This document shows, one piece after another, positions 8,917 through 57,782 of a stretch of 64,000 nt of DNA. The DNA is taken from the NCBI RefSeq assembly GCF_965641715.1, contig NZ_OZ282453.1; one strand, written 5' to 3'. The notes beneath the pieces were generated by a model, which was given only the letters and a program-made list of their open reading frames with translations, did no database searches and had not been told where the DNA came from. The position numbers were made by a program, and so were the translations under genes. Position 1 is the stretch's first letter, and every line of letters starts with the position of its first letter. The stretch is from Escherichia coli (lineage in GTDB: Bacteria > Pseudomonadota > Gammaproteobacteria > Enterobacterales > Enterobacteriaceae).

Positions 8917-8970
8917 ATGTCGCAAAATCAAGAAATTAGCAAGAAAGAACAATACAATCTGAACAAGTAA
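8917..8970 (+). pseudogene. ttcC: ttcA 5' remnant (ttcC-like) left at the int-distal prophage junction
   Basis: Reads [17 protein letters not shown] and shares the 26-bp core aagaaagaacaatacaatctgaacaa (8941..8966) with the ttcA start at 53887..53912. Confidence 0.85.
8941..8966. repeat. att core, int-distal junction
   Basis: Exact 26-bp repeat of 53887..53912. Confidence 0.85.
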
Positions 8971-43747: not shown

Positions 43748-44536
43748 TTACCCCCTGAAGCCTGGCGGGATCGCACTATCCGGTAACGAAACGGTGTTAA
43801 CCTGTCGGAGTAACGTCTCAGGTCGAACACCTTTCGGCGCGAACAAGCCCTGGTATTCATTAGCAATGCTGTGTCGAATCACCTGCTCAGGTGAAAAACC
43901 CTGCTGGCGGAATTTTTCCAGCTCTCGTATCGCCCCGTTAGCGCCCTGCTCCGTTCGAATCGGTTTTCGCAATGCCTGCCTGAACTGAACCCACTCATGC
44001 CAGAGTGTTTCCGGCAACCAGTCAGGCAGCTCGATAGCCTCCGGCTCGAATTTTTTAGACGCTCGTTTTTGGCGAAGGGGATTTAGGGGGAGATCAGTAT
44101 TTATATCTTCCTCTTCCTCTTCCTCTGGTAACGCTTTTTGATCCGTTTGTGTAACGCTGCCAGCGTTACCTTTTCGTTTCAGTTCGCGTATTTTTGTAAC
44201 TCGCTCGTTTGTAACCGCCCGTTTTTTAGAGCTTTTTCCGTTATGACGTTCAAAGTTAGGTAGAGAAAGCCCACCGTCATTTTCGACCAGCCATCCAACC
44301 TGAATTAACGCATCAGCAAAACCAGCCATAAAAGTGATGCGATCTATTGCACTTTTTGTAACGCCGCGAGCGTTACAATCTGCATTACCGTCTATCATTT
44401 GTTGATCCGCCCATGCCCAGAAGCGAATAACCTTCCCTAATGCGGCATCTGGATCAATATTCAGAATCTCAGCAAGCCTGAATATTTCCGGCTTATCCGG
44501 CGTAATAACTTCGAGCTTTATCCAGTTTGAAGCCAT
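43748..44536 (-). CDS. ydaU: Replication initiation protein YdaU-like (DUF1376)
   Basis: 262 aa MASNWIKLEVITPDKPEIFRLAEILNIDPDAALGKV...; Rac gene order; contains the palindromic repeats listed below. Confidence 0.8.
   Translation of the reverse strand: MASNWIKLEVITPDKPEIFRLAEILNIDPDAALGKVIRFWAWADQQMIDGNADCNARGVTKSAIDRITFMAGFADALIQVGWLVENDGGLSLPNFERHNGKSSKKRAVTNERVTKIRELKRKGNAGSVTQTDQKALPEEEEEEDINTDLPLNPLRQKRASKKFEPEAIELPDWLPETLWHEWVQFRQALRKPIRTEQGANGAIRELEKFRQQGFSPEQVIRHSIANEYQGLFAPKGVRPETLLRQVNTVSLPDSAIPPGFRG
44151..44169. repeat. 19-bp palindrome GTAACGCTGCCAGCGTTAC (copy 1 of 3)
   Basis: Perfect inverted repeat; related copies at 44358 and 44550. Confidence 0.8.
44358..44376. repeat. 19-bp palindrome GTAACGCCGCGAGCGTTAC (copy 2 of 3)
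   Basis: Same half-sites GTAACGC / GCGTTAC. Confidence 0.8.
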
Positions 44537-44549
44537 TTGTTTTCACCTT

Positions 44550-44568
44550 GTAACGCTCGCAGCGTTAC
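44550..44568. repeat. 19-bp palindrome GTAACGCTCGCAGCGTTAC (copy 3 of 3), just upstream of the ydaU start
   Basis: Same half-sites; lies in the ydaT-ydaU intergenic region. Confidence 0.8.
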
Positions 44569-44613
44569 ATTTAACTGATACCGAACAAAACAGTCCGGCA
44601 CGATTAATTTCAA

Positions 44614-45036
44614 TCAATGCACTACAACAGAATCGCCAGGCGACCCGCCGCCGCTGAAATGTGCTTTACGGTAAACGGCCTGGACTGCATCATCATGCGC
44701 ATCAATTGCCGTACTCAACGCTTCCTGCGCCGCCAGTAATGCACGGCGTTCCAGGGTATCGAAGATGCAGAGTCGGTGACGCAGCTCGCGCGGAAGAATT
44801 GCCAGAACCGCAGGGATCAGTGTCTGAATTTTTTCCCTTTGCGCTTTCGTTTCGCCTTTCAACCAGCGGTGATAGATGTTCTGCTGATTGTTCCAGTCCT
44901 TGCCTGGTACCAGCGGCAATTCGCCGCCCCCCTGGCGCAGATATTCTTCAGTAATTGCATTAGCTACCCACGCCTGCCCTTTTTCGGCTGCCAGGGCTAA
45001 CAACACTGATTCGATGTGCTCATGCCTGATTTTCAT
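44614..45036 (-). CDS. ydaT: YdaT-like protein (Rac toxic early protein)
   Basis: 140 aa MKIRHEHIESVLLALAAEKGQAWVANAITEEYLRQ...; length and position match Rac YdaT. Confidence 0.8.
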   Translation of the reverse strand: MKIRHEHIESVLLALAAEKGQAWVANAITEEYLRQGGGELPLVPGKDWNNQQNIYHRWLKGETKAQREKIQTLIPAVLAILPRELRHRLCIFDTLERRALLAAQEALSTAIDAHDDAVQAVYRKAHFSGGGSPGDSVVVH

Positions 45037-45322
45037 GAATCAACTCCTGTGCATTTTGTGTGTTAGCCTTGCATCCAACAGGTAAACCGTCGGTTGGGTT
45101 CGGGTAGATATCAGGCCGGAGTTCATGAGGTGTAACCTCGAAATTCGTAGCCTCTGCGATACGCAATACCTTTTCAGGGCTTAACTGACTACGTCCAGTA
45201 GCAACGAGGCTAATCATTGATTGCGAACAACCAGCCAGCGCGGCCAAACAAGACTGTCGTACACGATTTTTTTTCAAATATTCATCTAATGTCATAAGGG
45301 TCACCTTAGTAATGCTTACCAA
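45020..45322 (-). CDS. ydaS: Cro-like HTH regulator YdaS
   Basis: About 100 aa HTH protein divergent from racR; start may be the internal Met (MTLDEYLKK...). Confidence 0.75.
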   Translation of the reverse strand: MVSITKVTLMTLDEYLKKNRVRQSCLAALAGCSQSMISLVATGRSQLSPEKVLRIAEATNFEVTPHELRPDIYPNPTDGLPVGCKANTQNAQELIHENQA

Positions 45323-45399
45323 AATATTAACTATATTAATTTAAATGATCAACACCTATATCAGTTTGAGATTATGAGCTGTATTCATAAGATGGTGAT
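45323..45399. promoter_or_regulatory. Divergent promoter/operator region between ydaS and racR
   Basis: AT-rich intergenic segment with palindromic elements (ttaactatattaatttaa) between divergent regulator genes. Confidence 0.55.
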
Positions 45400-45864
45400 A
45401 TGAGAAGAAAACGCGAAGAAATCGCATCGCCGGAAGCTACGCAACGTCTGCGCGCAATCTGGGATGCAAAAAAGAGAGAGCTCAAACTGACTCAGGAGCT
45501 TGCTGCCGAGCTAATGGGTTTTGAGGCGCAATCTGCGGTTAGCCATTATCTCAACGGAAAGGCTCCACTTAATACTGATGCGGCATTAAAATTCGCTGTA
45601 TTACTAAGAGTTAAGCCTGAAGAGTTGAGGCCTGATTTAGCTGATCTGATGAATTACGTCCGTTCCTCAGGAACTTATGACGAAAGTTTCGAAGGCGAAG
45701 GTTGGCGGATGGTTAACAAGCAACAGGCTGATTTACTGGACCTTTTTGATATCCTTCCCGAATCAGAAAAAGCAAAACTAATCGAAAGGCTTAAAGGCCA
45801 GAATGAACTCTACAAAGAAGCGTTTGAAAATATGCTGGCAGCTCAAAAACGCATGAAGAAATAG
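45400..45864 (+). CDS. racR: Prophage repressor RacR-like (XRE-family HTH)
   Basis: 154 aa with HTH (LTQELAAELMGFEAQSAVSHYLNGK); divergent from ydaS/ydaT as in Rac. Confidence 0.8.
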   Translation: MRRKREEIASPEATQRLRAIWDAKKRELKLTQELAAELMGFEAQSAVSHYLNGKAPLNTDAALKFAVLLRVKPEELRPDLADLMNYVRSSGTYDESFEGEGWRMVNKQQADLLDLFDILPESEKAKLIERLKGQNELYKEAFENMLAAQKRMKK

Positions 45865-45883
45865 CTCCCACCACCTCGTAACT

Positions 45884-45909
45884 AAACCGCCATTTTTGGC
45901 GGTTTTTTT
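45884..45909 (+). terminator. Rho-independent terminator after racR
   Basis: Hairpin ccgcc-attttt-ggcgg followed by tttttttg. Confidence 0.7.
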
Positions 45910-46128
45910 GTCCCCTCCGCCCGTCCCCGCCTTACTTTTTATCAAAAAAACACTAAAAATTTCATTAGGATAGTACATTTTTATCAACAAAATGCATATT
46001 TGTGTTGATCATTAATATGAACATAACTAATATTATTACAGAAGCAGCACGGCGCTGTAGGTTTTAGTTCCGCCACCCGGCGTTAAAGGGAGAGATAAAA
46101 TGGTGCTTACGAAGTAGTTCAGTATTTG

Positions 46129-46233
46129 ATGGATTGTTGCGGTATCACTTACAGCCAAGCTGTACAGGCTTTACGCTGCAACGACTGGGATCTCTGGCAG
46201 GCAGAAGCCGCTATACGCAGCAACAAGATGTGA
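46129..46233 (+). CDS. Small protein (34 aa), YdaG-like by position
   Basis: ORF MDCCGITYSQAVQALRCNDWDLWQAEAAIRSNKM; not in the ORF track (short). Confidence 0.35.
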   Translation: MDCCGITYSQAVQALRCNDWDLWQAEAAIRSNKM

Positions 46234-46243
46234 TATTCGAAAA

Positions 46244-46399
46244 ATGCAAAAAATCGACCTCGGCAACAACGAATCTCTGGTATGTGGCGTGTTTCCCAAT
46301 CAGGACGGCACATTCACAGCCATGACGTATACCAAAAGCAAAACGTTTAAAACCGAAGCTGGCGCACGTCGCTGGTTGGCAATACATTCAGGTGAATAA
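46244..46399 (+). CDS. Small protein (51 aa), YdaF-like by position and length
   Basis: ORF MQKIDLGNNESLVCGVFPNQDGTFTAMTYTKSKTFKTEAGARRWLAIHSGE; not in the ORF track (short). Confidence 0.4.
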   Translation: MQKIDLGNNESLVCGVFPNQDGTFTAMTYTKSKTFKTEAGARRWLAIHSGE

Positions 46400-46400
46400 A

Positions 46401-46763
46401 ATGAACGAAACAGAATTAAAACACGTTATCGCTCTGCTTCTGGAGGATGCAAAGCGCCTCCAGCAGCTGGCCCCAAATGCAGGCACTGAAGAGCGAATTA
46501 TTATGGCTAATAAAAGTCTACATTCTGCATATGATACAAATACAAAGCAAACAGATAAAAATATTATTGTTTATGGGCACAGCGTTAACAGAGAATTTGC
46601 TTACTTTGTTCTGGAAAAATATCAACCTACATTTTGCCGGATAATAGAAGAACTAACATTAAAAGGCAAAGATAAAGAGTTTATTGAAAATGCTGTGGCA
46701 ACGGCAAGCGCAGCAGCCGTTGCCAGTATCAAATCAATGATTGCTCTAGCGATTAACCAATAA
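46401..46763 (+). CDS. Hypothetical protein (about 120 aa) at the position occupied by sieB in Rac
   Basis: ORF 46392..46763 with probable ATG at 46401; soluble and AT-rich; not similar to SieB. Confidence 0.5.
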   Translation: MNETELKHVIALLLEDAKRLQQLAPNAGTEERIIMANKSLHSAYDTNTKQTDKNIIVYGHSVNREFAYFVLEKYQPTFCRIIEELTLKGKDKEFIENAVATASAAAVASIKSMIALAINQ

Positions 46764-46920
46764 ACCCAGGGGGGATATCACGCTGAGGTGGGTTAAGAAG
46801 CTCGGTAAACACCGCTCTCAGGCGTTGAACTTCTGAAATAAAATCGGCTTCACTGCAATCCCAGCCTTTGGGGTGCTTAAGTCGCAAATATTCAAAAACT
46901 AACGAATCAATTTCATTCAT
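46753..46920 (-). CDS. Hypothetical small protein (about 55 aa), convergent with the preceding gene
   Basis: C-terminal part of ORF 46753..47124 starting MNEIDSLVFEYLRLKHPKGWDCSEADFISEVQRL...; the N-terminal extension looks spurious. Confidence 0.3.
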   Translation of the reverse strand: MNEIDSLVFEYLRLKHPKGWDCSEADFISEVQRLRAVFTELLNPPQRDIPPGFIG

Positions 46921-47338
46921 ATTGGATAGCACAATTATTCTCCTTACTAGTTGTGTGAGAACTCCAGTATACCACCGAGCCTGAAGTGGTAAAAAGACAG
47001 GCGCACAACACGAAGGCGCATTTCCGGTATCCATAAAGAGTCGGTCTTGTCTGTTAAATTTAAATGGTGGGAGTGCGCCTCCGGTTGTAAATAACAACAC
47101 TGCTGTGTGTAGTCTTGGCGGCATCAGTTTTTTCTTGAAGTTCGGCTGATGTCCGCCCTTTTTAAAGTGAATTTTGGGATGTGGTGAATGCGGCTAAGCG
47201 CACGTGGCACAGTTAAAAGTCATGTTAGTCCTTATTGGTTTGTGTGGGAAAACCGACAGTAATTGTTAACTGGTTGCAGTCACCTGGAGGCACCAGGCAC
47301 CGCATCCACAAATTTCATTTGTAAAAATGGAGATAATT

Positions 47339-47560
47339 ATGATTGCACATCACTTCGGAACTGATGAAATACCACGTCAGTGTGTGACTCCTGGCGATTA
47401 TGTTCTTCATGAAGGCCGAACATATATTGCATCGGCAAACAATATTAAAAAGCGAAAACTTTATATTCGTAATCTGACCACAAAAACATGCATTACTGAC
47501 TGCATGATTAAAGTCTTCCTCGGTCGTGATGGTTTACCCGTAAAGGCGGAGTCATGGTGA
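47339..47560 (+). CDS. kilR: KilR-like cell-division inhibitor
   Basis: 73 aa [42 protein letters not shown]...; length and position match Rac KilR. Confidence 0.7.
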
Positions 47561-47730
47561 TGACTAAGAAAATAAAATGTGCTTACCACCTTTGCAATAA
47601 AGAAATTGAAGAAAGCAAAAGTATTAAAAGACCACTTCATTTCATGCGTGGAGTTATCCCAACGACGGAAATGAAAAAATATTGTAGTAAAAGTTGTGCC
47701 GAAAAAGACCAGATGGCATACGAACTTTAA
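47560..47730 (+). CDS. ydaE: YdaE-like small zinc-binding protein (56 aa)
   Basis: [21 protein letters not shown]...KYCSKSCAEKDQMAYEL with CxxxC...CxxxC; start overlaps the kilR stop (TGATG); not in the ORF track. Confidence 0.55.
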   Translation: MTKKIKCAYHLCNKEIEESKSIKRPLHFMRGVIPTTEMKKYCSKSCAEKDQMAYEL

Positions 47731-47803
47731 TTAACTGACTATTCGAAACTGAATTTATGCCAGAAATGGCAGGGATTCACTCAACCGTAAAAAGGAAACA
47801 GCA

Positions 47804-48100
47804 ATGAACATTATTGAATGTGAAATTGAACTTGATGTCATTAACGATTCTCTCGCCGAATTTAAATGCGGGAATACATTACATGGTTTTATTCAGATTT
47901 CCCTGGAAGAAAAAGTTACGGTGATTATTGATGGCGGTTACGTTCTGGGAACATTTGATTGTTATGTATGTGCCGTTAAAGAAGTCGCATTACTCGCAGC
48001 TCGTATTGAAGAGGCCGACAAGAAATACGGTATCAGTTATCAACGACTGAAAGAACTCTCTTATATCGCATCATCAGTGCGTTTCTTTTATGCAATCTGA
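47804..48100 (+). CDS. RacC-like protein
   Basis: 98 aa ORF directly upstream of the recE remnant, as racC is in Rac. Confidence 0.45.
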   Translation: MNIIECEIELDVINDSLAEFKCGNTLHGFIQISLEEKVTVIIDGGYVLGTFDCYVCAVKEVALLAARIEEADKKYGISYQRLKELSYIASSVRFFYAI

Positions 48101-48123
48101 ATCTGCGTTGGGGTTAAAAAACA

Positions 48124-50109
48124 ATGAGCACAAAACCACTCTTCCTGTTACGGAAAGCGAAAAAATTATCCGGTGAACCTGACGTCGTCCTGTGGGCAAG
48201 CGACGATCTTGAATCGACCTGTGCCACTCTGGATTACCTGATCGTTAAGTCAGGTAAAAAACTGAGCAACTATTTTAAAGCTGTTGCTACTAATTTTCCT
48301 GTCGTTAACGACCTGCCCCCAGAAGGGGAGATCGATTTTACGTGGTGTGAACGCTATCAACTCGGCAAGGACTCAGTCACTTGGAAACTAAAACCGGGTG
48401 CAGCACCAGACAACGCTCACTATCAAGGCAATACCAACGTCAACGGCGAAGACATGACTGAGATTGAGGAGAATATGTTACTGCCGGTATCAGGTCAGAT
48501 TCTGCCTGTTCGATGGCTGGCACAGCATGGCAGCGAAAAACCGATCACACACGTTTCGCGGAGCGAACTGCGCGCATTACATAACGCACAGGATGAAAAA
48601 CTTCCCGCCGTTACCGCGCTGGCTATCTCAAATAAAGCAGCACAACTCGAACCGCTGGAAATTCGCGAGCTCCACAAACTGGTTCGTGACACTGACAAAG
48701 TTTTCCCTAATCCTAGTAATTCAGACCTGGGACTGATGACTGCTTTTTTCGAAGCATACCTGGGCGCTGACTACACCGATCGCGGTCTGCTTACAAAAGA
48801 GTGGATGAAGGGGAATCGTGTTTCACGCATCACCCGCACGGCTTCCGGTGCTAATGCTGGCGGCGGGAACCTCACCGATCGCGGCGAAGGTTTCGTCCAC
48901 GATCTGACGTCACTGGCGCGCGACGTAGCCACTGGCGTACTGGCCCGTTCAATGGATCTGGACATCTATAACCTTCATCCGGCACACGCTAAACGCATTG
49001 AGGAAATTATCGCTGAAAATAAACCGCCCTTTTCTGTTTTCCGCGACAAATTCATCACCATGCCTGGCGGGCTGGATTATTCCCGTGCCATCGTGGTTGC
49101 GTCCGTGAAAGAAGCACCAATTGGGATCGATGTCATCCCCGCGCAAGTCACTGAATATCTGAACAAAGTACTGACTGAAACCGATCATGCCAACCCTGAT
49201 CCGGAAATCGTGGATATTGCCTGCGGTCGCTCCTCTGCCCCGATGCTGCAGCGTGTAACAGAAGAAGAAAAACAGGATGATGAAGAAAAACCGCAACCAT
49301 CTTGCGCAATGGCAGATGAACAGGCAATGGCTGAAACAGTGGAACCGGATGCAACTGAACATCATCAGGACACGCAGCCGCTGGATGCTCAGTCACAGGT
49401 AAATGCTGTTGATGCGAAATATCAGAAACTGCGGACAGAACTCCATGAAGCCCGGAAAAACATTCCGTCCAAAAATCCTGTCGATGCAGACAAATTACTG
49501 GCTGCCTCTCGCGGAGAATTTGTTGAAGGGATTAGCGACCCGAATGATCCGAAATGGGTTAAGGGGATCCAGACCCACGATTCTGTGTACCAGAATCAAC
49601 CAGAAACGGAACAGAACGACCGAAAATCGGAACAGAACAGCCCAAATACGCAACAAAACGAGCCAGAAACGAAACAGCCTGAGCCAGTAGTGCAACAACT
49701 GGAAACGGAGAAAGTTTGCACCGCCTGCGGTCAGGCTGGCGGCGGCAACTGTCCTGACTGCGGCGCGGTGATGGGCGACGCAACGTATCAGAAAACCTTT
49801 AATGAAGAAAATCAGAATGAATATCAGGAAAAAGGTCTGGAGGAAATGGAAGGTGCTGAACATCCGCACAAGGAGAACGCTGGCAGCGTTCCGCATCGCG
49901 ATTGCAGTGATGAAACTGGCGAAGCAGCAGCTTCATCATTAGAAAAACTCGACTGGAAAAGACAAGTGGTGATTGCAGCGGTTTACGGTTTATGTGCGAA
50001 TCCTGCGGGTATAGCCTCAGCGCCATTAATTCCGGGTATTGCAATGATGATTGCAAACAAACTTGAAAATTTTGGGGTGACGGATGATGAGTACATGCCC
50101 AATTTTTGA
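48124..50109 (+). CDS. recE: RecE N-terminal region (truncated exonuclease VIII, lacks the C-terminal nuclease domain)
   Basis: 661 aa [46 protein letters not shown]... matches the non-catalytic N-terminal two-thirds of Rac RecE (866 aa); the frame ends where lambda gam begins. Confidence 0.8.
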
Positions 50110-50383
50110 TCGCATTGAAGAGCAGGCATGGTCACGCCACTACCAGCAAATCGTTCGCGAAGAAAAAGAAACGGCGCTGGCGGACGACCTGGAAAAAGGT
50201 CTGCCCCAGCACCTGTTTGAATCGCTCTGCATCGACCATTTGCAACGCCACGGTGCCAGCAAACAGGCAATCAGTCGCGCATTTGATGACGATGTTGAAT
50301 TTCAGGAACGCGTGGGGGAGCACATCCGGTACATGGTTGAAACCATTGCTCGTCACCAGGTTGATATTGATTCAGAGGTATAA
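50084..50383 (+). CDS. gam: Gam (RecBCD inhibitor), short form
   Basis: 99 aa ...[51 protein letters not shown]... matches lambda Gam. Confidence 0.9.
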
Positions 50384-50388
50384 AACGA

Positions 50389-51174
50389 ATGAGTACAGCA
50401 CTTGCAACACTGGCCGGGAAGCTGGCTGAACGCGTCGGCATGGATTCTGTCGACCCGCAGGAACTGATCGCCACTCTTCGCCAGACGGCATTTAAAGGTA
50501 ATGCCAGCGATGCGCAATTCATCGCGCTGCTGATCGTCGCCAACCAGTACGGACTTAATCCGTGGACGAAAGAGATTTACGCCTTCCCTGATAAGCAGAA
50601 CGGCATTGTTCCGGTGGTGGGCGTTGATGGCTGGTCCCGCATCATAAATGAAAACCAGCAGTTTGATGGCATGGACTTTGAGCAGGACAATGAATCATGT
50701 ACATGCCGGATTTACCGCAAGGACCGTAATCATCCGATCTGCGTTACCGAGTGGATGGATGAGTGCCGTCGCGAACCATTCAAAACCCGAGAAGGCAAAG
50801 AAATCATCGGACCGTGGCAGTCGCATCCCAAACGGATGTTACGGCATAAAGCCATGATTCAGTGTGCCCGTCTGGCCTTCGGATTTGCTGGTATCTATGA
50901 CAAGGATGAAGCCGAGCGCATTGTCGAAAATACCGCATGCACTGCAGAACATCAGCCGGAACGCGACATCACTCCGGTTAACGATGAAACCATGCAGGAG
51001 ATTAACACTCTGCTGATTGCCCTGGATAAAACATGGGATGACGACTTATTGCCGCTCTGTTCCCAGATATTTCGCCGCGACATTCGTGCATTGTCAGAAC
51101 TGAAACAGGCCGAAGCAGTGAAAGCTCTTGGATTCCTGAAACAGAAAGCCGCAGAGCAGAAGGTGGCAATATGA
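50389..51174 (+). CDS. bet: Bet (Red-beta single-strand annealing protein)
   Basis: 261 aa [37 protein letters not shown]... near-identical to lambda Bet. Confidence 0.97.
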
Positions 51175-51851
51175 CACCGGACATTATCCTGCAGCGTACC
51201 GGGATCGACGTGAGAGCTATCGTGCAGGGGGATGATGCGTGGCACAAATTACGGCTCGGCGTCATCACAGCTTCAGAAGTTCACAACGTGATAGCAAAAC
51301 CCCGCTCCGGAAAGAAATGGCCTGACATGAAAATGTCCTACTTCCACACCCTGCTTGCCGAGGTTTGCACCGGTGTGGCTCCGGAAATTAATGCTAAGGC
51401 GCTGGCCTGGGGAAAACAGTACGAGAACGACGCCAGAACCCTGTTTGAATTCACTTCCGGCGTGAATGTTACTGAATCCCCGATCATCTATCGCGACGAA
51501 AGTATGCGCACCGCCTGCTCTCCCGATGGTTTATGCAGTGACGGCAACGGCCTTGAGCTGAAATGCCCGTTTACCTCCCGGGATTTCATGAAGTTCCGGC
51601 TCGGTGGTTTCGAGGCCATAAAATCGGCTTACATGGCCCAGGTGCAGTACAGCATGTGGGTGACGCGAAAAGATGCCTGGTACTTTTCCAACTATGACCC
51701 GCGTATGAAGCGTGAAGGCCTGCACTATGTCGTGGTTGAGCGGGATGAAAAGTACATGGCGAGTTTTGACGAGATGGTGCCGGAGTTCATCGAAAAAATG
51801 GACGAGGCACTGGCTGAAATTGGTTTTGTATTTGGGGAGCAATGGAAATGA
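51171..51851 (+). CDS. exo: Exo (Red-alpha 5'-3' exonuclease)
   Basis: 226 aa [44 protein letters not shown]... near-identical to lambda Exo. Confidence 0.97.
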
Positions 51852-52078
51852 GCGCAGCCATAAAGCTCACAGGAGAAAAACCAGTGCTATACACAAAAGT
51901 CAAACCATGTCCGTTTTGTGGTTGTCCATCAGTAACGGTGAAAGCCATTTCAGGATATTACCGCGCAAAGTGTAACGGATGCGAATCCCGAACTGGCTAT
52001 AGTGGAAGTGAAAAAGAAGCACTCGAAAGATGGAATAAACGAACTACTGGAAATAATAATGGAGGTGTTCATGTATAA
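51842..52078 (+). CDS. lar: Lar/RalR-like restriction alleviation protein
   Basis: Small protein with zinc-finger CPFCGC...CNGC; position between exo and xis as in Rac. Confidence 0.65.
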
Positions 52079-52259
52079 AATTACCGCCACTATTGAAAAG
52101 GAAGGTGGCACTCCTACTAAATGGACAAGATATTCAAAATCTAAACTAACGAAATCAGAATGCGAAAAAATGCGCTCAGGTAAAAAAGAAGCAGGCGTTT
52201 CCAGAGAGCAGAAAGTAAAACTGATAAATTTTAATTGCGAGAAACGTCAGTCCTCGTGA
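52059..52259 (+). CDS. YdaC-like small protein
   Basis: ORF 52002..52259 with probable internal start ([17 protein letters not shown]...); Rac gene order. Confidence 0.4.
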   Translation: MEVFMYKITATIEKEGGTPTKWTRYSKSKLTKSECEKMRSGKKEAGVSREQKVKLINFNCEKRQSS

Positions 52260-52358
52260 ATTGCATTGTATTCAAATTAAAACTTCATAGCTGATTATTA
52301 ATAATCAACATCGGGCGTCAATTTCAGTCTAACATTGGCGCCTGCCAGAGGTGATGCG

Positions 52359-52574
52359 ATGGCACAAGTAATCTTTAATGAAGAGTGGATGGTTGAATAC
52401 GGCCTGATGCTTCGCACTGGTCTGGGGGCCAGACAAATTGAAGCATACCGCCAGAACTGTTGGGTGGAGGGCTTCCACTTCAAACGAGTATCTCCTTTAG
52501 GTAAGCCAGACAGCAAACGAGGGATTATCTGGTACAACTATCCAAAGATAAATCAGTTTATCAAAGATTCATGA
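52359..52574 (+). CDS. xis: Excisionase-like protein (Rac Xis/YdaQ-like)
   Basis: 71 aa [43 protein letters not shown]... immediately upstream of int. Confidence 0.7.
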
Positions 52575-52575
52575 T

Positions 52576-53811
52576 ATGTCTAAATTACCAACAGGTGTCG
52601 AGATTAGAGGTAGATACATTCGCATCTGGTTCATGTTTCGAGGAAAACGATGTCGGGAAACATTAAAAGGCTGGGAGATTACAAACAGTAATATTAAAAA
52701 GGCCGGAAATTTAAGAGCGCTGATAGTTCATGAAATAAACTCCGGTGAATTTGAGTATTTAAGACGTTTTCCCCAGTCCAGCACTGGGGCAAAAATGGTG
52801 ACAACGAGAGTCATAAAAACGTTCGGGGAGCTTTGTGATATCTGGACAAAAATTAAAGAGACAGAGTTAACAACAAACACAATGAAGAAAACGAAATCAC
52901 AATTAAAAACACTCAGAATAATAATTTGTGAAAGTACCCCGATATCACATATTCGTTATAGCGATATCTTAAACTACCGGAATGAACTGCTGCATGGAGA
53001 AACGCTTTACCTGGATAATCCAAGATCCAACAAAAAAGGAAGAACCGTGCGCACAGTTGATAACTATATCGCCCTGCTCTGTTCGCTGTTACGTTTTGCG
53101 TATCAGTCGGGATTTATATCAACCAAACCATTTGAAGGAGTAAAAAAATTACAGCGAAACAGAATAAAGCCTGATCCGTTATCTAAAACAGAATTCAATG
53201 CATTAATGGAAAGTGAAAAAGGACAGAGCCAAAACTTGTGGAAATTTGCCGTTTACTCAGGACTTCGTCACGGGGAACTGGCAGCTCTGGCGTGGGAGGA
53301 TGTGGATCTCGAAAAGGGAATAGTGAATGTCAGAAGAAACCTGACGATACTTGATATGTTCGGTCCCCCAAAAACAAATGCCGGGATCCGGACAGTAACA
53401 CTACTGCAGCCTGCTCTTGAAGCACTGAAGGAGCAATACAAACTGACCGGACATCATCGCAAAAGCGAAATCACCTTTTATCATAGGGAGTACGGCAGAA
53501 CCGAAAAGCAAAAACTGCATTTTGTTTTCATGCCCAGGATGTGTAACGGAAAACAGAAACCTTATTACTCGGTAAGCAGTTTGGGGGCAAGGTGGAATGC
53601 AACAGTAAAACGTGCTGGTATTCGCCGCCGTAATCCGTACCATACGCGGCATACTTTTGCCTGCTGGCTGTTGACGGCAGGAGCGAACCCGGCATTTATA
53701 GCCAGCCAGATGGGGCATGAAACTGCGCAGATGGTGTATGAAATTTACGGTATGTGGATTGATGACATGAACGACGAACAGGTAGCCATGTTGAATGCGC
53801 GGTTATCGTAG
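52576..53811 (+). CDS. int: Tyrosine site-specific integrase (IntR-like)
   Basis: 411 aa; C-terminal catalytic region with HxxR and Tyr (...YHTRHTFACWLL...MGHETAQMVYEIY); adjacent to the att core in ttcA. Confidence 0.93.
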   Translation: MSKLPTGVEIRGRYIRIWFMFRGKRCRETLKGWEITNSNIKKAGNLRALIVHEINSGEFEYLRRFPQSSTGAKMVTTRVIKTFGELCDIWTKIKETELTTNTMKKTKSQLKTLRIIICESTPISHIRYSDILNYRNELLHGETLYLDNPRSNKKGRTVRTVDNYIALLCSLLRFAYQSGFISTKPFEGVKKLQRNRIKPDPLSKTEFNALMESEKGQSQNLWKFAVYSGLRHGELAALAWEDVDLEKGIVNVRRNLTILDMFGPPKTNAGIRTVTLLQPALEALKEQYKLTGHHRKSEITFYHREYGRTEKQKLHFVFMPRMCNGKQKPYYSVSSLGARWNATVKRAGIRRRNPYHTRHTFACWLLTAGANPAFIASQMGHETAQMVYEIYGMWIDDMNDEQVAMLNARLS

Positions 53812-53818
53812 TTGCAAA

Positions 53819-53840
53819 GTTTGCCCCCAATTTGCCCCAT
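53819..53840. repeat. Two TTTGCCCC-type decamers next to the int-proximal att (candidate Int arm-type sites)
   Basis: gtttgccccc aatttgcccc; same motif family as 9068..9120. Confidence 0.5.
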
Positions 53841-53862
53841 TTAGTACCAGAGAACTGAAATA

Positions 53863-54798
53863 ATGCAAGAAAATCAAAAGAATACGAAGAAAGAACAATA
53901 CAATCTGAACAAATTACAAAAACGCCTGCGTCGTAACGTGGGCGAAGCCATTGCTGACTTCAATATGATTGAAGAAGGCGATCGCATCATGGTTTGCCTC
54001 TCCGGGGGTAAAGACAGCTATACCATGCTGGAGATTCTGCGCAATTTGCAGCAAAGCGCGCCAATCAATTTTTCGCTGGTGGCTGTTAACCTCGATCAAA
54101 AGCAACCGGGCTTCCCGGAACACGTTCTGCCCGAGTATCTTGAAAAGCTGGGCGTTGAGTACAAGATTGTTGAAGAGAACACTTACGGTATCGTGAAAGA
54201 GAAGATTCCAGAGGGCAAAACCACTTGCTCACTGTGTTCTCGCCTTCGTCGCGGTATTCTTTATCGTACCGCAACGGAACTGGGGGCGACGAAGATCGCG
54301 CTGGGTCACCATCGTGACGATATCCTGCAGACGCTGTTCTTAAATATGTTCTACGGCGGCAAGATGAAAGGTATGCCTCCGAAACTGATGAGCGATGATG
54401 GCAAACATATCGTTATTCGTCCGCTGGCCTACTGCCGCGAGAAAGATATTCAGCGATTTGCCGATGCAAAAGCGTTCCCGATTATTCCGTGCAACCTGTG
54501 CGGTTCACAGCCTAACCTGCAACGTCAGGTGATTGCTGACATGTTGCGTGACTGGGATAAACGTTATCCAGGGCGTATCGAGACGATGTTCAGCGCGATG
54601 CAGAATGTGGTGCCGTCGCATCTGTGCGATACCAACCTGTTCGATTTCAAAGGCATCACCCACGGTTCTGAAGTGGTTAACGGGGGTGATCTGGCGTTTG
54701 ATCGCGAAGAGATCCCACTACAACCGGCGGGCTGGCAGCCAGAAGAAGATGAAAATCAGTTGGATGAGTTACGGCTGAATGTGGTTGAAGTGAAATAA
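53863..54798 (+). CDS. ttcA: tRNA 2-thiocytidine(32) synthetase
   Basis: 311 aa with PP-loop SGGKDS and CxxC motifs; the first 8 codons are prophage-derived (see att). Confidence 0.96.
53887..53912. repeat. att core, int-proximal junction (inside the ttcA 5' end)
   Basis: Exact 26-bp repeat of 8941..8966. Confidence 0.85.
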
Positions 54799-54845
54799 CC
54801 AGGATAGCGCCCGATGCGCAAGCGTATCGGGCTACTCTTATGGAG

Positions 54846-54878
54846 GCCGGATAAGACGCGGCCAGCGTCGCATCCGGC
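54846..54878. repeat. REP (repetitive extragenic palindromic) element
   Basis: gccggataagacgcggccagcgtcgcatccggc, the typical E. coli REP palindrome. Confidence 0.75.
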
Positions 54879-54926
54879 AATCCCGAATAAGATGTTTACT
54901 CTTGCACCCGGCAATTCAACATTTCA

Positions 54927-56300
54927 TTATTTTAATAACCGCACCCGGCACGTTTTTCCTTTAATCTTCCCGCCCTGTAACTGTTTCCATGCTTTATGAG
55001 CAACAGCCTGACGGACCGCGACATAGACATGCGCCGGATGCACGGCGATTTTGCCAATATCTGCGCCATCAAGCCCGATATCTCCTGTCAGTGCACCTAA
55101 TACATCACCCGGGCGCATTTTGGCTTTTTTCCCGCCATCGATACACAACGTTGCCATTTCTGCTTCCAGCGTCACAATGGAACTATTAGCTGGCGGCGTT
55201 TGCCAGTTAAGTTTTATCTGCAACATGTCAGAAATGATATTGGCCCGCTGTGCTTCTTCCGGAGCACAGAAACTGATCGCCAGACCGCTATTTCCTGCAC
55301 GAGCTGTACGACCGATGCGATGTACATGAACTTCAGGGTCCCACGCCAGCTCAAAGTTCACCACCAGCTCAAGCGATTTAATATCCAGACCACGCGCAGC
55401 AACATCAGTCGCGACCAGTACACGGGCGCTACCGTTAGCAAAACGTACCAGGGTCTGATCGCGATCGCGTTGCTCCAGATCGCCGTGTAATGACAATGCA
55501 CTTTGCCCTACTTCATTCAGCGCGTCGCAGACAGCCTGGCAATCTTTTTTGGTATTGCAAAACACCACGCAAGAGGATGGCTGATGCAAGCTTAATAACC
55601 GTTGCAACAGAGGAATTTTGCCTTTGCTGGATGTCTCATAAAATTGTTGTTCAATGGGTGGCAAAGCATCTGTTGAGTCAATTTCAATCGCCAAAGGATC
55701 GCGTTGCACTCGTCCGCTGATTGCAGCGATGGCTTCCGGCCAGGTTGCCGAAAACAGAAGCGTCTGTCGAGATGCAGGCGCAAAACGGATGACATCATCA
55801 ATGGCATCGCTAAATCCCATATCCAGCATGCGGTCGGCCTCATCCATCACCAAAGTATTCAGCGCATCCAGTGATACCGTGCCTTTTTGCAAGTGATCCA
55901 GCAAACGACCCGGCGTTGCCACGATAATATGCGGCGCATGTTGCAACGAATCACGCTGCATACCGAACGGTTGACCACCGCACAACGTCAAAATTTTGGT
56001 ATTTGGCAGAAAACGCGCCAGCCGACGCAATTCACCTGCCACCTGATCCGCCAGTTCACGCGTAGGACACAGCACTAAAGCCTGGGTTTGAAATAGCGAC
56101 GCATCAATTTGCTGTAACAAGCCGAGGCCAAAAGCCGCCGTTTTGCCGCTGCCGGTTTTCGCCTGCACGCGAACATCTTTTCCGGCAAGGATCGCCGGAA
56201 GCGCGGCGGCCTGCACCGGCGTCATGGTTAAATAACCCAACTCATTAAGGTTCGTGAGTTGGGCGGGAGGCAAAACATTCAGGGTAGAAAAAGCGGTCAC
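54927..56300 (-). CDS. dbpA: ATP-dependent RNA helicase DbpA (DEAD-box)
   Basis: 457 aa with Walker A AKTGSGKTAAF, DEAD box, SAT and HRIGRTAR motifs. Confidence 0.96.
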   Translation of the reverse strand: MTAFSTLNVLPPAQLTNLNELGYLTMTPVQAAALPAILAGKDVRVQAKTGSGKTAAFGLGLLQQIDASLFQTQALVLCPTRELADQVAGELRRLARFLPNTKILTLCGGQPFGMQRDSLQHAPHIIVATPGRLLDHLQKGTVSLDALNTLVMDEADRMLDMGFSDAIDDVIRFAPASRQTLLFSATWPEAIAAISGRVQRDPLAIEIDSTDALPPIEQQFYETSSKGKIPLLQRLLSLHQPSSCVVFCNTKKDCQAVCDALNEVGQSALSLHGDLEQRDRDQTLVRFANGSARVLVATDVAARGLDIKSLELVVNFELAWDPEVHVHRIGRTARAGNSGLAISFCAPEEAQRANIISDMLQIKLNWQTPPANSSIVTLEAEMATLCIDGGKKAKMRPGDVLGALTGDIGLDGADIGKIAVHPAHVYVAVRQAVAHKAWKQLQGGKIKGKTCRVRLLK

Positions 56301-56329
56301 AATCTATTCTCGTGGTCATCGACGCAAAG

Positions 56330-56503
56330 TTAGCAGGCGCGTATCCTCGCAGATCTACGCTCACGATGCGACAATTTAATCGGTTCTTCATCGGGTGGTG
56401 GGTCAGGCATGGGTTGCGGGCGAGGGATCGGATCGGGCACTGGAACAGGATCGCCAGGAATCGGTTCAGGGACAGGAATTTGCAAATAAATAAGTGTCGT
56501 CAT
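56330..56503 (-). CDS. Hypothetical small proline-rich protein (57 aa)
   Basis: ORF MTTLIYLQIPVPEPIPGDPVPVPDPIPRPQPMPDPPPDEEPIKLSHRERRSARIRAC with GGAGGG RBS; not in the ORF track (short). Confidence 0.4.
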   Translation of the reverse strand: MTTLIYLQIPVPEPIPGDPVPVPDPIPRPQPMPDPPPDEEPIKLSHRERRSARIRAC

Positions 56504-56777
56504 ATTTCCCTCCGGTCATTGGGTGGACTCTTAAAGGGTAGACGCTGATAAATAACAGGCAAAAAAAAGCCGACTCATCAAAGTCGGCGTCGTACGAATC
56601 AATTGTGCTATGCAGTAATTCAAAAAAGGAAGTAAGACAATATGGAGCGCAACGCCCATCGCTTGACGTTGCATTCACCTGCAAGAGAGATATTGCCCTG
56701 AATGGGTAGAGAGTTTATTGACTTCGCTCAAACTTTGCGGCGTTTTTGTATACAGACAGCCGGAAAAATTGCTTTTG

Positions 56778-57782
<1,005 letters not shown>

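Follow-up and report, generated by a model that had tools for sequence, protein, structure and literature searches.

A nuclease-less RecE-family gene with a conserved tail ahead of gam, bet and exo in a Rac-type prophage of Escherichia coli

The window analysed here is a 64,000-nucleotide (nt) stretch of an Escherichia coli genome (NCBI RefSeq assembly GCF_965641715.1, contig NZ_OZ282453.1) that holds a complete lambdoid prophage of the Rac family, about 45 kb in length and inserted in ttcA. Its recombination genes comprise four open reading frames (ORFs) on the plus strand, namely a gene for a nuclease-less RecE-family protein of 661 amino acids (aa), here called RecE-N (48124–50109), followed by gam (50087–50383), bet (50389–51174) and exo (51171–51851). 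A previous sequence-only reading had placed the four ORFs at these same positions and taken them for a junction at which the RecET module of Rac was replaced by lambda Red, with a RecE remnant left behind. While the gene calls hold, the notion of a remnant does not, as RecE-N is kept intact under purifying selection and travels with gam.

As had been proposed, the 661-aa protein corresponds to the non-catalytic N-terminal region of RecE. Pfam assigns Exonuc_VIII (PF06630, E = 2.2e-84) to residues 2–178 only, and when K-12 RecE is compared with the window by tblastn, residues 1–587 alone align, with 85 % identity. The PD-(D/E)XK 5′–3′ exonuclease domain (about residues 600–866 in K-12; PF12684 in the long forms) is absent from RecE-N according to both Pfam and tblastn, and neither RecE residues 588–866 nor K-12 RecT found a match in the 64-kb window (tblastn; best E above 2). 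The earlier claim that recT is missing is thus borne out by a window-wide search for exactly those sequences whose presence had been named as contrary evidence. The NCBIfam equivalog model NF007259 covers RecE-N at model positions 1–600 of 877 only and yields 1103.8 bits, short of its cutoff of 1269; moreover, the gene that follows encodes Bet and not the RecE partner RecT. PADLOC returned no defence match for RecE-N, and no solved structure of the whole protein or of parts of it was found in the PDB.

The breakpoints of the region were set by blastn against K-12 Rac and lambda. Homology to codons 1–587 of K-12 Rac recE (88 % nt identity) extends over 48094–49930 on the plus strand and is followed by an orphan segment of 177 nt (49931–50107, plus strand) that resembles neither K-12 nor lambda and encodes a conserved tail. 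Lambda homology (93.8 % nt identity) then runs over 50108–51859 on the plus strand, from codon 8 of gam in its GamS form to 7 nt past the exo stop. The right-hand junction (51860–51895) lies between the end of lambda homology at 51859 and the resumption of other Rac-type sequence, with homology to the prophage of strain PEC41 from 51873 and to K-12 Rac from 51896, and the K-12 homology continues from ralR to dbpA (51896–56811, 99.06 % nt identity). Alignment to K-12 recE/recT and lambda gam, bet and exo, the check suggested along with the sequence-only reading, hence places breakpoints at 49930, 50108, 51859 and 51896. It also corrects the statement that the RecE-like ORF stops where gam begins, since the reading frame goes on for 74 codons past the RecE breakpoint, through the unmatched segment, and reaches its stop codon 26 nt inside gam. 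The recE block is itself mosaic, being K-12-like at its 5′ end and similar to PEC41 and E. coli M8 from about 48429 (identity per 100 nt). Its first ~100 codons (48124–48429) share 93–97 % nt identity with K-12 and are only ~50 % identical to the genes of M8, PEC41 and the mouse strain IGC_RcoliRes_1.1, which marks an extra mosaic breakpoint inside the PF06630 region.

In lambda, Gam blocks RecBCD, Exo resects 5′ ends (5′–3′), and Bet anneals the exposed single strands. In the window, gam has an ATGATG start and encodes 98 aa, or 99 aa if read from the first ATG at 50084, so that its start overlaps the RecE-N stop by 23–26 nt, depending on the ATG. The product matches PF06064 (E = 3.3e-56, profile positions 4–98 of 98) and shares 79.6 % aa identity with lambda Gam residues 41–138, that is, the GamS form. 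Because it equals GamS, the gene is not a truncation; the earlier description as a "short" lambda-like gam is therefore correct as regards the Gam family and lambda type, but not as regards length, and the nt identity to lambda gam is only 81 %. For bet and exo, near-identity to lambda is confirmed (95–97 % nt). Bet (261 aa; RecT family PF03837, E = 1e-32) passes the TIGR01913 equivalog (167 bits versus a cutoff of 76.95) and is 96.9 % identical to its lambda counterpart (96.6 % by a second alignment). The exo start overlaps bet by 4 nt, and the 226-aa product carries the YqaJ domain (PF09588, E = 1.4e-29), is 96.5 % identical to lambda Exo and scores 53.7 with TIGR03033, under the cutoff of 68.05. 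Residues R28, D109, E129 and K131 are all unchanged; in lambda Exo, the last three form the catalytic triad and R28 contacts the 5′-phosphate. By their coordinates, the genes show the gam-bet-exo order and the overlapping starts of a Red system. With 80–97 % identity and intact active-site residues, the functions of Gam, Exo and Bet may reasonably be assumed to be those of the lambda proteins. Consensus scans for a promoter or terminator between RecE-N and gam remained at background level, with no excess inside the block.

The core of the RecE-N tail begins with [DN]WK[RK], ends with AP.IP.IA.MIAN[KR]LEN[FL]G and is common to at least four sequence subtypes, represented, for example, by the window, by the Shigella phage 75/02 Stx (Stx, Shiga toxin) and by E. 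coli O104:H4. Selection was assessed between subtypes by the Nei–Gojobori method over 52 tail codons, giving ratios of nonsynonymous to synonymous substitution rates (dN/dS) of 0.16 for the window versus 75/02 (dS 1.4, Fisher p = 1e-6), 0.09 for the window versus O104:H4 (dS 1.8, p = 2e-9) and 0.18 for 75/02 versus O104:H4 (dS 0.5, p = 2e-4); the window and M8 are near-identical, and so few changes separate this pair that it is not informative. When the window/M8 type is set against the 75/02 and O104 types, the synonymous sites of the tail prove to be nearly saturated (proportion of synonymous differences 0.61–0.69), while the amino acids are kept. The tail is under purifying selection. As it exists only in nuclease-less proteins, its low dN/dS speaks directly for a nuclease-less ORF that is translated and under constraint. 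Between the same subtypes, dN/dS amounts to 0.12–0.16 in the RecE-N core (residues 206–378) and to ~0.3 in the middle region. None of the 12 tail-bearing loci examined has a broken ORF; the frame (661–690 aa) always terminates within gam or at its start, with the stop overlapping the gam start in every subtype by either 26 nt or ATGA. Intact ORFs throughout and a tail under selection are at odds with the RecE remnant of the sequence-only reading.

Sequence searches gave the tail no relatives outside its own proteins. It has no Pfam match at E up to 10, finds in PHROGs only a weak match (phrog_26058, E = 0.076) and shows no similarity to RecE nuclease domains (E above 0.4). Likewise, a search of 5.8 billion proteins returned only fragments of its own protein group, and among 1.84 billion representatives there were five matches only, all from that same group. 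Public annotation treats such ORFs unevenly. In E. coli F2_407_2_2 (locus L002, 4001–6016), the Prokaryotic Genome Annotation Pipeline (PGAP) flags an intact ORF of 671 aa as a pseudogene ("incomplete; missing C-terminus"), and in other genomes it calls the same kind of ORF a "RecE family exodeoxyribonuclease". Both labels mislead, as the ORF is intact and has no nuclease domain.

A wider comparison of RecE homologs revealed four architectures that share a common sequence up to "...SDETGE" and diverge directly after it: PF06630 alone plus the tail (612–672 aa), PF06630 with a short PD-(D/E)XK domain (the K-12 type, 866 aa), PF06630 with the long PD-(D/E)XK domain PF12684 (about 1023–1042 aa), and PF06630 with a 3′–5′ exonuclease domain, PF16473 (about 803 aa). 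The nucleotide matches of all classes stop at window position 49930. The acidic linker ending in SDETGE (49889–49930), aligned in K-12 recE, PEC41 recE and the relative P0027, is the exchange point that they share. Among 80 loci from IMG/VR, the tail occurs with Gam-Bet-Exo (3 of 3) and the nuclease domain with RecT (69 of 75), and the two were never mixed. More distant relatives with 38–43 % core identity come from Enterobacter, Kluyvera, Klebsiella, Pluralibacter, Citrobacter and Pseudescherichia; all 12 either are fused to a nuclease or represent such fused genes in disrupted form, and the tail and Red are absent from each of them. This suggests a derived state for the tail form and a range limited to phages of Escherichia and Shigella.

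Within this range the arrangement is widespread. RecE-N (657–690 aa) followed by gam, bet and exo is also present in E. coli M8, where it occupies the yebY site and comes with another integrase, in O104:H4 2011C-3493 adjoining ynfH, and in the Shigella phages 75/02 Stx and POCJ13, phiSTEC1589-Stx1c and PhiR5_2, of which 75/02 Stx and POCJ13 were isolated and deposited as complete phage genomes. It occurs, in addition, in a ttcA-site prophage (locus L107) of the mouse strain IGC_RcoliRes_1.1, which by strain and position is presumably KingRac. The latter originates from this strain, forms particles and is transferred in the mouse gut (Frazao et al. 2019, PMC6731689). Of 5,426 complete E. coli genomes, 26 contain the junction of the window type and 74 that of the 75/02 type. 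The exact 661-aa protein (P0008) is encoded on at least 69 public contigs, and in each of the five places inspected its gene is found at ttcA, flanked by the same neighbours. The closest relative in a complete genome is the PEC41 prophage, with 99.2 % identity over 44000–47790 and 98.8 % from 51873 on; its recombination slot is occupied by a 1042-aa recE and a 350-aa recT. From this comparison, the slot emerges as a cassette that can be exchanged between phages which are otherwise nearly identical. The proposal that Red replaced RecET at this locus is hence right in that the same slot holds recE and recT in PEC41, but the junction is not a local one, being shared by about 100 genomes, phages and prophages with other integrases.

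A variant is seen in a Rac-like prophage of Shigella sonnei 53G (HE616528.1; locus L108, 1212–5611), in which an insertion sequence interrupts RecE-N. This prophage retains gam and a tail ORF of 77 aa, while a 365-aa PF13479 (AAA_24) gene, the product of which is possibly a Sak4-like recombinase, stands in place of bet, exo and ralR. Since tail and gam are retained here without bet and exo, the tail together with gam makes up the tightest unit of the cassette.

Taken together, we favour, at a probability of roughly three in four, the view that RecE-N, gam, bet and exo form an old and mobile hybrid cassette residing in a Rac-family prophage, in which RecE-N is a separate, selected accessory protein and not a remnant. 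The cassette probably arose by an exchange at the SDETGE linker, where RecE relatives carry interchangeable C-terminal modules, and not through a recent event in this prophage. Exo and Bet would then stand in for the RecE nuclease and RecT, while RecE-N would supply in trans the accessory role that the N-terminal 600 residues play in full-length RecE, and the tail might replace the covalent link to the nuclease as a docking or folding element. The N-terminal ~600 residues have been reported to make full-length RecE far better at linear–linear recombination.

Several points weigh against this view. AlphaFold2 (AF2) modelling of the whole 661-aa protein was unusable (mean predicted local distance difference test score, pLDDT, of 35 from a 16-sequence alignment). 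For residues 1–482, the alignment was enlarged by a scan of one genome per species, which added relatives at 32–40 % overall identity; the resulting model reached a pLDDT of 56, with only a helical region at about 120–235 being confident, and a Foldseek comparison of it with the PDB gave no match below E = 2. With no usable fold and no structural match, the accessory role of RecE-N is proposed only by analogy with full-length RecE. Furthermore, only the tail, with its 52 codons, is specific to the nuclease-less form, and part of the constraint seen as low dN/dS in core and middle could be due to recombination with full-length recE. The linkage of tail and gam, in turn, could be purely physical, as the two ORFs overlap. 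The direction of evolution, by loss of the nuclease and not from an ancestral separate gene, is suggested only by the 12 relatives from other genera. Finally, the tail and gam of S. sonnei 53G, beside AAA_24 and apart from bet and exo, count against docking of the tail on Exo. Docking on lambda Exo, considered as a specific function of the tail, is weakened by this same arrangement.

A more pointed version of the favoured view holds that the cassette amounts to a natural "split RecE", in which the 587-residue region acts in trans with a separate exonuclease and Gam, and the tail docks onto Gam, RecBCD or the Red complex. We advance this only tentatively and consider it rather doubtful. If true, it would offer a direct genetic handle on the function of the ~600 N-terminal residues of RecE, and linear–linear activity might be added to Red-based recombineering.

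The alternatives were weighed against the same observations. That RecE-N merely serves to deliver ribosomes to gam by translational coupling, or is an inactive hitch-hiker of gam, would fit the overlap of its stop with the gam start in every subtype and the persistence of tail and gam together even where bet and exo have been replaced. Coupling, however, needs only the last codons to be translated and not 660 conserved residues, the near-saturated synonymous sites of the tail with its amino acids kept indicate selection on the protein, and lambda as well as many Stx phages express gam without such an upstream ORF, all of which makes a pure leader function unlikely. We regard as more improbable still a one-off, local swap of Rac RecET for lambda Red that left behind a decaying, non-functional stump. 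The missing nuclease domain and recT would be in line with it, as would the PGAP label of pseudogene for the equivalent ORF in some genomes and the visibly mosaic character of the region, whose right flank is 99 % K-12-like compared with 88–92 % on the left. Yet some 100 complete genomes share the identical junction and tail, which are found at several sites of integration and also in phages deposited as complete genomes; subtypes separated by dS above 1 keep frame, length and tail at dN/dS values of 0.09–0.18; and the 12 ORFs found intact include the one flagged as pseudogene.

It is least credible of all that the hydrophobic tail serves to anchor the C-terminus in the membrane, or that RecE-N has been re-purposed, for example, for exclusion or anti-defence. 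An anchor could be suspected from a hydrophobic stretch within ~50 residues of the C-terminus, where the maximal Kyte–Doolittle hydropathy over 19 residues (1.62–1.70) lies at the usual threshold and AF2 places helices, albeit with low confidence. Nevertheless, Ala, Pro and Gly abound in this stretch, and its approximate insertion energy on the Hessa scale is +3.9 to +5.1 kcal/mol, as opposed to −1 to +1.7 for two reference transmembrane helices. With a hydropathy that is borderline and an unfavourable energy, the candidate anchor was dropped. Re-purposing is disfavoured by the lack of a PADLOC match and by the position of the gene, which is inside a recombination module in every case.

The surroundings of the cassette are those of a Rac-type prophage. 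A 26-nt exact direct repeat bounds the element, with the attL core at 8941–8966, a repeat of the ttcA 5′ region near which the K-12 flank homology (uspF/ompN side) ends, and the attR core at 53887–53912, inside the 5′ end of ttcA (53863–54798). The structural set is complete and includes terminase, portal, capsid, tail and lysis genes. The insertion at ttcA, the IntR/XisR arm and the duplicated ttcA 5′ end are all features of the Rac family. A tRNA-Gly gene (anticodon TCC) lies within the prophage on the minus strand (34782–34856), and its PEC41 sister also has one, in the corresponding region between the regulatory and lysis genes.

The presumed early-left transcription unit is headed by a RacR-like helix-turn-helix (HTH) repressor (45400–45864, plus strand; HTH_3 call in the identical locus L007), 3′ of which a terminator-like hairpin is located at 45884–45905. 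Between ydaG/ydaF-like genes and kilR there is a 123-aa ORF (46392–46763, plus strand) without PADLOC match, at about the place that sieB occupies, on the other strand, in K-12 Rac. Next come kilR, encoding a homolog of the FtsZ inhibitor (47339–47560, plus strand; PF27398 in the identical locus L007, with K-12 Rac homology), a ydaE-like gene for a zinc-binding protein of 58 aa (47554–47730, plus strand) and, in the racC position, a 98-aa ORF without family match (47804–48100, plus strand). The YdaE-like protein attains 33.0 bits with the eukaryotic Rtr1/RPAP2 zinc finger PF04181, exactly the Pfam gathering threshold, which probably reflects a shared zinc-binding motif. The recombination genes lie in this early-left block after the RacR-like repressor, kilR, ydaE and the racC-position ORF and before ralR, rcbA, xisR and intR. 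Of the latter, ralR encodes a Lar-family toxin (51884–52078, plus strand, GTG start; PF14354; 99 % nt identity to K-12 from 51896), and the antitoxin small RNA RalA lies opposite rcbA and adjoins ralR (52077–52255, minus strand; Rfam RF02694, 205.5 bits versus a gathering score of 170). With a complete RalA next to ralR, the RalR/RalA type I toxin–antitoxin pair of Rac is intact just downstream of exo. The arm is completed by rcbA/ydaC (DUF1187; 52071–52259, plus strand; PF06688), the excisionase gene xisR (52359–52574, plus strand; PF06806) and the integrase gene intR (52576–53811, plus strand; PF12167 and PF00589; 99 % nt identity to K-12).

In genomic terms the region is ordinary, given that lambdoid phages shuffle recombination modules. 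The exact protein and the cassette are already present in public databases and published phage genomes, and since the cassette is an already catalogued mosaic module, its novelty is low. The value of the analysis lies in correcting the remnant interpretation, for what persists next to a complete Red system is the non-catalytic part of RecE, kept by selection as a gene of its own. Among its carriers are phages whose complete genomes have been deposited, several being Stx-converting, and the presumed KingRac prophage, and the role of the RecE N-terminal region becomes testable by simple deletions in KingRac or 75/02 Stx. Automatic annotation, on the other hand, is misleading when it reports either an "exodeoxyribonuclease VIII" without a nuclease domain or a pseudogene with an intact ORF. 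According to a 2023 review, the function of the non-catalytic region of RecE is listed as unknown, and our literature search found no paper describing the tail or the coupling of RecE-N and gam.

Compared with known systems, the locus combines traits of both parents. It shares with the RecE/RecT system of K-12 Rac the ttcA site, the flanking kilR, ydaE, ralR/RalA, rcbA, xisR and intR genes and RecE residues 1–587 (85 % aa identity), but in place of RecE residues 588–866, that is, the PD-(D/E)XK nuclease, and recT it has a 74-residue tail and gam-bet-exo. With lambda Red it has in common the gene order and overlaps of gam-bet-exo, whereas lambda carries kil and cIII upstream of a 138-codon gam where the window has RecE-N, and lambda exo is followed by orf60a instead of Rac genes. 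An exchange of recombination modules between lambda and Rac is also known from the lambda reverse (lambda rev) hybrids, in which lambda acquires Rac recE in place of int-red-gam; the direction is opposite here, with a Rac-type phage carrying Red. The ttcA prophage of the KingRac source strain agrees with the window in cassette, site and right arm (96.5 % nt identity over 48429–55000) and differs in the N-terminal ~100 residues of RecE-N and in the immunity region, while the 75/02 and O104:H4 subtypes bear the same cassette at 83–84 % nt identity together with other integrases. In a survey of the prophages of O157 Sakai, Red-type and ExoVIII-type systems were listed separately (PMC2669165). Closest in concept are the lambdoid "RecE-2" proteins, which a 2025 survey (Genome Res, PMC12315714) describes as devoid of a nuclease domain, of unknown roles and "distantly related" to Rac RecE. 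RecE-N, a candidate member of the RecE-2 group, fits the description in being RecE-related, part of a lambdoid Rec module and without a nuclease domain, but over 587 residues its identity to Rac RecE reaches 85 %.

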